From positions 8,184 through 72,183 of the forward strand of contig JAJXUV010000009.1 in NCBI GenBank assembly GCA_021782495.1: a stretch of 64,000 nucleotides of DNA, given 5' to 3'. Shown here in pieces: positions 38,888-40,365 of this stretch. The notes beneath the pieces are model-generated. The model saw nothing but the letters and a program-made list of their open reading frames with translations. It was not told the origin of the DNA and did not search any database. The position numbers and the translations under genes are program-made. Every line of letters starts with the position of its first letter. The stretch's first letter is position 1. Source of the stretch: Pseudomonadota bacterium (GTDB taxonomy: Bacteria > Pseudomonadota > Gammaproteobacteria > UBA1113).

Positions 38888-39285
38888 CTTTATTAGGGTG
38901 TTTTGCCTTATTTGTGCTGTTGCTCAGCGTGTGGGTCAGCGCTCCACTATTTTGCACCCCCTCTTCTATACACTATGGCCCTTGGTGCTTCACTCTATTG
39001 CCCTTGATTTCAGTGACCCTTCTTTTATATGCTGTATTTGGCCATCAACAAGCCTGGCAAGATTGGCAAGAACACGGCCGAGCGCATTATAAATTAATGA
39101 ATCAAGTACAAAAATTAGGCGGTTTACAAGGCTTAATTCAAGGTGTCAAAGCACGTTTGGCACAAAACCCGGACGACATCCACGGTTGGCAATTGCTGGC
39201 TAAATTGTATGCGGCCAATCACCAAATGCAAGAAGCCCAAGCAGCAGAATGGGAGATAAAACGACGTGAAACAAACAGGCTTTAG
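38884..39285 (+). CDS. Short CcmI/CycH-like protein
   Basis: TM segment, LYAVFG, then ARLAQNPDDIHGWQLLAKLY TPR-like motif; ATGA overlap with ccmH. Confidence 0.75.
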   Translation: MTLLGCFALFVLLLSVWVSAPLFCTPSSIHYGPWCFTLLPLISVTLLLYAVFGHQQAWQDWQEHGRAHYKLMNQVQKLGGLQGLIQGVKARLAQNPDDIHGWQLLAKLYAANHQMQEAQAAEWEIKRRETNRL

Positions 39286-39664
39286 TTTAATCGAATTGAT
39301 CATAGCCATGGCTATCATCGGAATATTGGCGGTGATTGCTTATCCCAGTTATAAAACTCATCTAGAACAGGCCAGACGCAGCGATGGGCAAACGGCACTT
39401 TTAGATTTGGCAAATCGCTTGGATCACTATTTCAGCGAAAATAACCAGTATGCGGGGGCGACTTTGGCAGAACTGGGTGTTAGTCCCCGTTCCACCGAAG
39501 GCTATTACGCACTGGCCATTGCCAGCCTAGAAGACAATGCTTTTCGTATACAAGCCATTCCCATCGGCGCTCAACAAGAAGATGCTTGCGGAACTCTGAG
39601 TTTAAATCAATTGGGCGAACGGGGGTTTAGCGGAAAAAATACGGAATTAAAACATTGCTGGTAA
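39266..39664 (+). CDS. pilE: Type IV minor pilin PilE-like
   Basis: GFSLIELII prepilin motif, AYPSY, RRSD, C-terminal Cys pair ending CW. Confidence 0.88.
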   Translation: MKQTGFSLIELIIAMAIIGILAVIAYPSYKTHLEQARRSDGQTALLDLANRLDHYFSENNQYAGATLAELGVSPRSTEGYYALAIASLEDNAFRIQAIPIGAQQEDACGTLSLNQLGERGFSGKNTELKHCW

Positions 39665-39690
39665 ATGTCATTCTTAGAAAAGCGCCTTTT

Positions 39691-39756
39691 TGTCATTCCT
39701 GCGAAAACAGGAATCCAGTGCATTTATGCAGGATCCCTGTTTTCGCAGGGATGACA
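39691..39756. repeat. Family B palindrome
   Basis: tgtcattcctgcgaaaacaggaatcc...ggatccctgttttcgcagggatgaca. Confidence 0.88.
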
Positions 39757-39770
39757 ACAACACCCTAAAG

Positions 39771-39796
39771 AAAAAGGGTGGCTTGCGCCACCCTTT
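39771..39796 (-). terminator. Rho-independent terminator of the Csr/Rsm sRNA
   Basis: Minus strand AAAGGGUGGC-GCAA-GCCACCC-UUUUU. Confidence 0.85.
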
Positions 39797-40001
39797 GATC
39801 CCCGTCTCTCATCCCTTAGAGACGGTTATTTTGCTCCATCCTAGAGTCATTGCACTCATCCTTTAGTGCTAGTGCATCCGTGCACATCTCATCCTAACGT
39901 CCCATCCTTCGAAAAAACATCCCTTCTTAGCGGCATCTTATCCCTACCTGCCGTTCTACTCCCTTAGCATGCATCCTTGCGTCACATGTCCATACGTGTA
40001 C
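39771..40001 (-). ncRNA. CsrB/RsmY/RsmZ-type CsrA-sequestering small RNA (~230 nt)
   Basis: 14 GGA motifs, mostly A(N)GGAUG in small hairpin loops; sigma70 promoter upstream and terminator downstream; no ORF; 5' end is estimated. Confidence 0.85.
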
Positions 40002-40007
40002 TTCTAT

Positions 40008-40036
40008 AGAGTAGAGCAAATACAATTACCCTGCAA
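40008..40036 (-). promoter_or_regulatory. Sigma70-type promoter of the sRNA
   Basis: Minus strand TTGCAG-17 nt-TACTCT. Confidence 0.75.
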
Positions 40037-40086
40037 CTTTTAAAGGGTAATTGTTCCGGAAAAAATTTAGACACAAGGTGCTGAAA

Positions 40087-40099
40087 TATCAAGAGATTA
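40087..40099. promoter_or_regulatory. IHF site
   Basis: TATCAAGAGATTA fits WATCAAN4TTR. Confidence 0.6.
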
Positions 40100-40150
40100 T
40101 ACAAAAAAATACAAATTTGATTATTCTTTAAGCAACTTTTGACCGTTCTT

Positions 40151-40164
40151 TAAGAAATTTCGTA
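40151..40164. promoter_or_regulatory. LetA/GacA-type box
   Basis: TAAGAAATTTCGTA versus the Legionella consensus TNAGAAATTTCTNA (1 mismatch). Confidence 0.7.
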
Positions 40165-40190
40165 CAAGAAAAAACCCCTTCTTCCAAAAC

Positions 40191-40225
40191 TTATCCACAG
40201 ATTCTGTGGATAACCATGTGGATGA
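40191..40225. promoter_or_regulatory. DnaA-box triplet (DARS-like core)
   Basis: TTATCCACA-N5-TGTGGATAA-N3-TGTGGATGA. Confidence 0.7.
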
Positions 40226-40244
40226 GTTAGGGTAATCTCTGCCA

Positions 40245-40354
40245 CTCTCGAGCTGAAGGAAGCTCTCTTGGGATCGTAGGCCCGCCATGGATAACGGTAG
40301 TGTGGTATAGGGATGCACAGAGCGTGTCCCAAGAGAATTTTCTCAGCTCGAGAG
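40245..40354. repeat. Family D palindrome (intergenic copy)
   Basis: ctctcgagctga/tcagctcgagag ends; ttggga, catggat, agggatg and agcgtgtcccaag shared with 37459-37572. Confidence 0.8.
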
Positions 40355-40365
40355 CCTGTTGACAA

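Follow-up and report, generated by a model that had tools for sequence, protein, structure and literature searches.

A candidate GGA-rich small RNA of the CsrA-sponge kind and its genus-restricted relatives in an uncultured Legionella-like bacterium

The minus strand at positions 40003-39771 of the window, that is, of the whole 64,000-nucleotide (nt) stretch of DNA analyzed here, very probably carries a real, unannotated candidate gene for a small RNA (sRNA) of ~233 nt, of the kind that acts as a sponge for the regulatory protein CsrA. The host is an uncultured Legionella-like bacterium with a genome of 1.89 Mb. A preliminary description of this DNA had proposed an unannotated Csr/Rsm-type sRNA of ~230 nt, and every element that it listed was located as described, with the sequence features expected of a candidate of the class. 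The sRNA is housed in a 700-nt intergenic gap (39665-40365), along which an 18-nt box, a match to the consensus of integration host factor (IHF), the element TTGCAG-17-TACTCT, a GGA-rich stretch, and a terminator with its T run follow one another on the minus strand. The motifs, the structure, the conservation, and the partner genes are present. The main elements are listed below, where G009 denotes the genome holding the closest relative and R1 a covariance model described further on.

40149..40166, minus strand: candidate activating box of the GacA/UvrY/LetA type, TGTACGAAATTTCTTAAA, an 18-nt near-palindrome identical in G009 and on contig C8 of this genome
40087..40099, plus strand: IHF-consensus site TATCAAGAGATTA, a perfect WATCAANNNNTTR match ~90 nt upstream of the preferred start
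40064..40092, minus strand: alternative promoter-like site P2 (TTGATA, 17 nt, TAAATT), a promoter-scanner call with 9/12 matches
40008..40036, minus strand: predicted preferred promoter P1, TTGCAG (40036-40031), 17 nt, TACTCT (40013-40008), conserved in G009
39771..40003, minus strand: predicted sRNA body of ~233 nt with 14 GGA, 12 of the 14 in A(N)GGA context; 273 bits with R1

The 14 GGA motifs that the preliminary description had claimed for the minus strand were all recovered within 233-235 nt (~40003 to 39771). When all 235-nt windows of the genome were counted on both strands, the background was 2.49 GGA on average (standard deviation 1.64), and the genome maximum of 14 was seen at the sRNA locus only. 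Fourteen other regions reached 11-13 GGA; two of them were read, one of which (C1:29180-29503) proved to be 16S rRNA and the other, on contig C6, was coding-like by eye. In addition to the A(N)GGA context, eight of the 14 motifs read GGAUG. The consensus of CsrA ligands selected by SELEX is RUACARGGAUGU, with the core of which GGAUG agrees. The sRNA sequence is single-copy in the genome, and four DNA contig runs across 39700-40250 were near-identical, with two single-letter differences (40007 in X6 and 40181 in X3).

A BLAST search over 40 related genomes returned a sole full-length relative, in G009, at 67% identity. This orthologue shares the downstream pilin gene and was the only one found in the same gene neighborhood. 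Pairwise alignment showed conservation of the box and its flanking sequence, of the block TTAAAAGTTGCAGGG-AATTGTATTT...CTACTCT, and of the IHF match, which reads AATCAAAGACTTA in G009; at least 10 GGA positions coincided. The minus strand alone folded at -75.6 kcal/mol (z = -5.18), a stability that none of 200 shuffled sequences equaled, and RNAalifold on the sRNA and its G009 orthologue gave 56 pairs, 14 of them changed on both sides. All 51 retained pairs were found to pair in both sequences; the 14 pairs changed on both sides compare with 0-1 in slid controls, in which the partners were shifted by 1-3 columns and only 32-49% of cells paired. The hairpins of the structure are as follows.

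39983..39998, minus strand: 5' hairpin of the conserved structure with GGA in its loop, UAUGGACA
39971..39980, minus strand: small hairpin with loop AAGGAU; one of its two pairs changed on both sides
39928..39958, minus strand: two-tier hairpin with loop GGUAGGGAUAAGA; three compensatory pairs
39872..39885, minus strand: hairpin GUGCA-CGGA-UGCAC (GUGCACGGAUGCAC); GCGCA-AGGA-UGCGC in G009, compensatory
39852..39869, minus strand: hairpin with loop AAAGGAUG; two compensatory pairs and two one-sided changes
39834..39846, minus strand: hairpin CUCUA-GGA-UGGAG; stem retained in G009, where the loop GGA is AGA
39798..39829, minus strand: long hairpin with loop AAGGGAUG, containing CCGUCUCUAAGGGAUGAGAGACGG; two compensatory pairs
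39768..39796, minus strand: Rho-independent terminator with U tract; one compensatory pair relative to G009

The placement of GGA motifs in short stem-loops, as originally claimed, was borne out in the conserved structure, seven of whose nine predicted hairpin loops carry GGA. An unpaired probability of at least 0.5 was predicted for nine of the 14 motifs, with a mean of 0.68 over the GGA positions versus 0.45 over the whole RNA. At the 5' end, the start of the sRNA relatives reads GUGUACAGGAUGUACAU. The claimed terminator was likewise found and is a strong one, with a stem of 10 pairs (six of them G-C) at 39796-39773 followed by a T run, and it was retained in nine of the nine aligned relatives.

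More distant relatives came to light because a covariance model was used, since BLAST alone had given only G009. The model, R1, was built from the pair of the sRNA and its G009 orthologue; it gave full-length matches in G002, G004, G005, G008, and G006, which together with the present genome and G009 make seven of the 10 genomes of the genus. The matches span 142-257 nt, shorter extra copies of 142-210 nt being present in several genomes, and the nine members that were examined are 184-257 nt long with 10-15 GGA, 7-11 of them predicted to be unpaired. In a MAFFT alignment of nine sequences, 17 of 46 predicted pairs showed compensatory change. Beyond the genus, R1 found no match in 11 genomes of the other 10 genera of the family and order (21 genomes sampled including the genus), and among 150 other families of the class, each represented by one genome, it gave just two weak, terminator-sized partial matches and no full relative. 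The sRNA had been described as a lineage-specific member of its class, a view with which this distribution over the genus and the rest of the order agrees. Upstream of the related loci, an IHF-consensus site was found 94-127 nt away in six of 10, and the same six carry a variant of the box; these variants were read by eye, as the automated box pattern caught L017 only.

Further family loci were also sought by upstream motifs. In metagenome contigs, 21 loci were found to share the conserved promoter word, and R1 detected the RNA at none of them. A scan of genome contigs with a degenerate box gave at least 118 stretches, 100 of which (L023-L122) were run against R1 and five of which matched (L025, L054, L063, L082, and L095); the scores of four of these equal those of known members, and that of L025 was new. 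The other degenerate-box hits are chance matches in unrelated phyla. Two further features of the relatives were observed. In seven loci (L011-L014, L016, L017, and L157), the stretch from the IHF site to the promoter includes a conserved block containing the palindrome GGTCGACC, a block that is lacking at the present locus and in G009 and that may be a second protein-binding site. Several genomes, G004 and G008 among them (L012, L017, L019, L020, L014, L016, L156, and L166), carry the long family in three to five copies, of which some are degenerate or truncated; in one case a truncated copy and a full copy are 3.7 kb apart, with the truncated one near a PilB-like gene.

The upstream cassette was also found as the preliminary description had it. 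The 14-mer TAAGAAATTTCGTA, there placed ~155 nt upstream, lies at 40151-40164 within the 18-nt box. When the box was compared by hand with the UvrY site of Escherichia coli csrB as that site is given in PMC4682653, 13 of 18 positions agreed. The IHF consensus that had been noted ~90 nt upstream is a perfect WATCAANNNNTTR match at 40087-40099. Each of these two matches is weak alone, and their weight derives from their conservation in relatives. The element TTGCAG-17-TACTCT is read at 40036-40008 as a candidate promoter with a weak match to consensus, which is as expected for a promoter that would depend on an activator. G009 has identical hexamers and shares most of the spacer, and the same place in the other relatives is occupied by TATCCT, TATTCT, or TATCTT.

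The likely partners of such an RNA are encoded in the same genome. The absence of csrA had been named as an observation that would speak against the sRNA; one csrA gene was found, on contig C13 (134297-134455), with 90.9 bits in Pfam and 113.5 bits in NCBIfam against a cut-off of 73. A response regulator encoded directly upstream of uvrC, the classical position, has its best match in the UvrY/SirA/GacA family by ~100 bits, and IHF alpha- and beta-like proteins are encoded as well. DotB, at 590 bits against a curated cut-off of 463, places the organism among the Dot/Icm-bearing bacteria.

The assignment to a class was examined with covariance models and with published criteria. At the gathering score, Rfam gave no match in the whole window, as expected from the earlier remark that standard annotation would likely miss this sRNA. 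The proposed check against Rfam covariance models brought up one family just under its threshold: PrrB_RsmZ (RF00166, clan CL00106) matched end to end on 39886-39768 with 38.4 bits (E = 4.3e-7; gathering score 44), and the G009 orthologue scored 32.9 bits against the same model. At E up to 10, PrrB_RsmZ was the sole clan match listed, with one lower clan match suppressed. The other Csr/Rsm families, which we take to be CsrB, CsrC, RsmY, and RsmX by their Rfam names, had no gathering-score match in the window. The 3' half of the sRNA thus looks like an RsmZ-type RNA: over its 3' 119 nt (39886-39768) it shares GGA-loop hairpins and the terminal stem-loop with PrrB/RsmZ of Pseudomonas, and a putative GacA-type upstream box is common to both. 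The 5' half, ~115 nt with eight GGA, appears to be extra, which agrees with the claim that the RNA is longer than typical RsmY/Z, since ~233 nt is about twice the 133 positions of the RsmZ model. Kulkarni et al. (2006; PMC1488887) define CsrA-regulating sRNAs by an intergenic location, a high density of AGGA/ARGGA, a terminator, the placement of GGA in loops, and an activator site conserved upstream. All five of these sequence features were found at the sRNA locus, namely, the 700-nt gap, 14 GGA in 233 nt, the terminator, GGA-bearing loops, and a conserved site of the UvrY/GacA type. On sequence grounds the sRNA represents a new family that Rfam does not contain, of a well-known functional kind, and the concept of Csr/Rsm regulation is unchanged by it.

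Taken together, these features make it quite probable that 40003-39771 on the minus strand is a stand-alone sRNA of the Csr/Rsm class that would be activated by a response regulator with IHF and would sequester CsrA. In the proposed mechanism, a phosphorylated regulator of the UvrY/GacA/LetA type would bind the palindromic box at approximately -155, IHF would bend the DNA at approximately -90, and the two together would switch on the weak core promoter TTGCAG-17-TACTCT. The transcript would form a row of short hairpins presenting A(N)GGA in loops and single-stranded linkers and would end at the intrinsic terminator; once accumulated, it would draw CsrA away from the mRNAs that CsrA targets, thereby switching the CsrA regulon. 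By our estimate, one RNA could hold ~5-7 CsrA dimers, because each dimer grips two GGA sites. Transcription itself, the start site, the binding of regulator and IHF, and the binding and stoichiometry of CsrA are what we infer from the sequence.

Several observations weigh against this reading. Only one close orthologue was found, in G009, and the structure tested for covariation was derived from the same two sequences, a procedure that favors it; in the alignment with the other clade, the 5' half is matched only roughly. The preliminary description had itself named GGA motifs buried in stems as unfavorable, and the folding check was divided on this point, with nine of the 14 predicted to be mostly unpaired, as the description would have it, and five predicted to be mostly paired. 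With up to two mismatches, the sequence that we take to be the 14-nt LetA consensus (TNAGAAATTTCTNA) matches 242 places in the genome, and the IHF pattern alone occurs at chance level (eight matches in the window versus 6.5 expected). P1, which the promoter scanner did not call, agrees with the sigma-70 consensus at six of 12 positions, and the better-scoring and equally conserved P2 overlaps the supposed IHF site, which makes both the start and the IHF reading tentative. As its 38.4 bits lie below the gathering score of 44, the sRNA is not a member of RF00166 by the Rfam rule. As to the partners, the UvrY/SirA/GacA-family regulator scored 239 bits where the curated cut-off is 280, and a hybrid histidine kinase resembles BarA, LetS, and TorS with no cut-off reached. 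This LetA 14-mer was also tried as a target finder at the same tolerance and was rejected as too loose, as it pointed to the 16S rRNA region and a coding-like stretch as false GGA-rich targets.

An RNA of the same class that starts from P2 instead seems rather unlikely, though it is the most serious of the alternatives. Its start would lie near 40057, giving an RNA of ~290 nt whose first 55 nt form a GGA-poor leader. The supposed IHF site, which the -35 of P2 overlaps, would then simply be a -35 region, and the conserved TTGCAG...TACTCT block would be an element that is transcribed or bound by protein. P2, with 9/12 matches, is the sole scanner call in this stretch; its hexamers are kept in G009 (TTGATT, 17 nt, TAAAAT) with a diverged spacer, the usual pattern of a true promoter, and the corresponding place in other relatives reads TTGATT, 18 nt, TAAGAT or TAAAAT. 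In the short paralogue family described below, however, an unambiguous promoter, TTGTCT-16-TACAAT, follows TTGATT at a distance of 70-90 nt, so that TTGATT is not the promoter there. Moreover, with P1 the box stands ~155 nt upstream and the RNA opens directly with a GGA hairpin, as in the relatives, the short family, and the RsmZ consensus. P1 is preferred for these two reasons.

Departures from the sponge assignment itself were judged less probable still. That the transcript is a structured RNA of another sort, such as a base-pairing sRNA or a decoy for a different RNA-binding protein, appears improbable: Coxiella CbsR12 is reported to bind CsrA and also to act on mRNAs (bioRxiv 10.1101/679134), which lends the idea a precedent, but the features conserved here are GGA loops and stems and include no long single-stranded seed, csrA is in the genome, and all five features of the class were found at the locus. 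A chance GGA-rich intergenic stretch or decayed repeat that is no gene at all would sit well with the dispersed palindromic repeat immediately downstream, and yet it would have to account for the genome-maximum GGA density, the 14 compensatory pairs, the conserved upstream cassette, and a single-copy sequence with relatives in seven of 10 genomes of the genus; we regard it as very improbable. The least credible alternative, with hardly any probability left to it, is a small protein-coding gene or leader peptide. Mechanical open reading frames (ORFs) of 40 amino acids (39982-40104, minus strand) and 58 amino acids (39690-39866, plus strand) do overlap the sRNA, but the 40-amino-acid frame begins upstream of the start points of both P1 and P2, the substitutions relative to G009 pair across stems instead of following codon position, and the sRNA ends in a terminator with no gene downstream of it on the minus strand.

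With the CsrA-sponge sRNA as the preferred reading, it can be set beside known systems. The RsmX, RsmY, and RsmZ RNAs of Legionella are ~100-130 nt long and have fewer GGA. In L. pneumophila, a cascade from LetA/S through RsmX/Y/Z to CsrA is reported to govern the switch to transmissive traits (PMC5338858, PMC12239595), and the circuit proposed here would be of the same LetA type, a likeness drawn from the description of those RNAs. A role in a replicative-to-transmissive switch in the present organism is suggested by analogy only, as the tie to such a lifestyle comes from the presence of DotB and from nothing else. For E. coli csrB, PMC4682653 describes an 18-nt UvrY palindrome centered near -183 and an IHF site before the promoter, with IHF needed for full activation; as far as that account goes, box, IHF site, and promoter stand in the same order at the two loci. 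The box differs from the csrB site at five of 18 positions. Many GGA hairpins and a terminator are likewise common to the present RNA and the CsrB and CsrC RNAs of E. coli and Salmonella (PMC1488887). CsrB1 and CsrB2 of Vibrio fischeri, at 416-420 nt and 21 motifs according to PMC1488887, are longer than the 233 nt and 14 GGA found here, so that by those figures the size of the sRNA falls between that of the RsmZ model (133 positions) and that of the V. fischeri CsrB RNAs. In Coxiella burnetii, CbsR12 and CbsR1 are presented as candidate equivalents of RsmY/Z with four to five CsrA sites, CbsR1 with a LetA-like site (bioRxiv 10.1101/679134). As described there, they resemble the present RNA in belonging to a Dot/Icm-bearing lineage and in lying outside the standard models, and differ from it in their four to five sites versus 14 GGA.

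The 18-nt box itself proved to be a marker of the genus. Allowing up to two mismatches, 2-9 sites per genome were found in all 10 genomes of the genus, compared with 0-1 for the reversed control, and in other genera the frequency was at the level of the control. This genome has four sites: one at the present sRNA, and three at the following places, where the gene behind the site in the window has a line of its own.

Contig C8, ~17800-18000 (L145, L160), minus strand: short GGA-rich candidate sRNA with ~7 GGA in ~110 nt
Window 62765-62748, minus strand: box TGTACGAGATTTCTGAAA, followed by an IHF match at 62694-62706
Window 61763-62599, minus strand: gene for a receiver-plus-Hpt protein, downstream of the TGTACGAGATTTCTGAAA box and its IHF match
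Contig C3, 120271-120288 (L178): perfectly palindromic box core TACGAAATTTCGTA with an IHF-like site and the promoter-like element TTCTATTAT; a similar arrangement at L005 (G004)

Upstream of the short candidate sRNA on C8 stand the same 18-nt box, letter for letter, an IHF-consensus site, and the near-consensus promoter TTGTCT-16-TACAAT; the start of this RNA, GGACAUG...GCAAGGA, resembles the 5' start of the long sRNA. Look-alike loci were recognized by eye, with no formal alignment, in G001, G002, G004, G005, G007, and G009. No Rfam match to the short sRNA was found at E up to 1, and R1 detected no homology between the long and short families. Directly 3' of the short sRNA lies an element of ~110 nt that begins with TTTACCTTCGCTAATCTCCCTAAG, is near-invariant across the genus, and ends in a strong terminator; it was also seen at L004, L006, L007, L008, L172, and L180 and has no Rfam match, and it is either part of the short sRNA, as its 3' domain, or an RNA of its own. 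The receiver-plus-Hpt gene, judged from its place behind box and IHF match, may be a protein-coding gene under direct control of the regulator or may serve the two-component system as a feedback arm. The cassette on C3 precedes a GGA-poor region and an ORF of 162 amino acids with only a faint coiled-coil match.

These findings identify the probable output RNAs of a GacA/LetA-CsrA switch in an uncultured lineage with a Dot/Icm secretion ATPase, and the sRNA fills an annotation gap left by the standard models. The genus-specific 18-nt box marks further candidate targets, and the variable length and copy number within one genus provide comparative material on how a CsrA sponge may grow by hairpin modules; the interest is raised somewhat by a second, short family that is distinct but lies behind the same box, and by an indication that the box also stands ahead of protein-coding genes. 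More tentatively, it is possible, although we think it doubtful, that a genus of Dot/Icm-bearing Legionella-like bacteria has turned a single Rsm-type RNA into a modular multi-copy family (142-257 nt, 10-15 GGA, and from one to about five copies per genome) and that the cassette of box and IHF site may also drive protein-coding genes directly. If so, the direct regulon would be wider than the sRNA-dominated UvrY binding in E. coli, and the family would offer a natural series for the evolution of sponge capacity.

The gap that houses the sRNA is bounded by two genes.

40366-41991, minus strand: GspE/PilB-like ATPase gene, the upstream neighbor of the sRNA
39266-39664, plus strand: ComP-type pilin gene, the convergent downstream neighbor

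Three further features were seen within the gap. Immediately past the sRNA terminator, at 39683-39763, lies a palindromic element of ~80 nt, a dispersed repeat of which short BLAST found 82 pieces genome-wide. An origin of the sRNA from a tandem repeat or mobile element was considered and rejected, the sRNA being single-copy and only this downstream palindrome being dispersed. An imperfect hairpin of ~100 nt (40245-40345, minus strand, -49 kcal/mol), also single-copy, stands directly behind the PilB-like ATPase gene's stop codon, where it could shield the sRNA promoter from read-through. Finally, an inverted pair of perfect DnaA boxes (TTATCCACA, 5 nt, TGTGGATAA) at 40191-40213, ~30 nt upstream of the 18-nt box, is unique in the genome and absent from G009; a third, degenerate box lies at ~40216-40224, and the stretch 40191-40213 is also matched by short contigs from other places.

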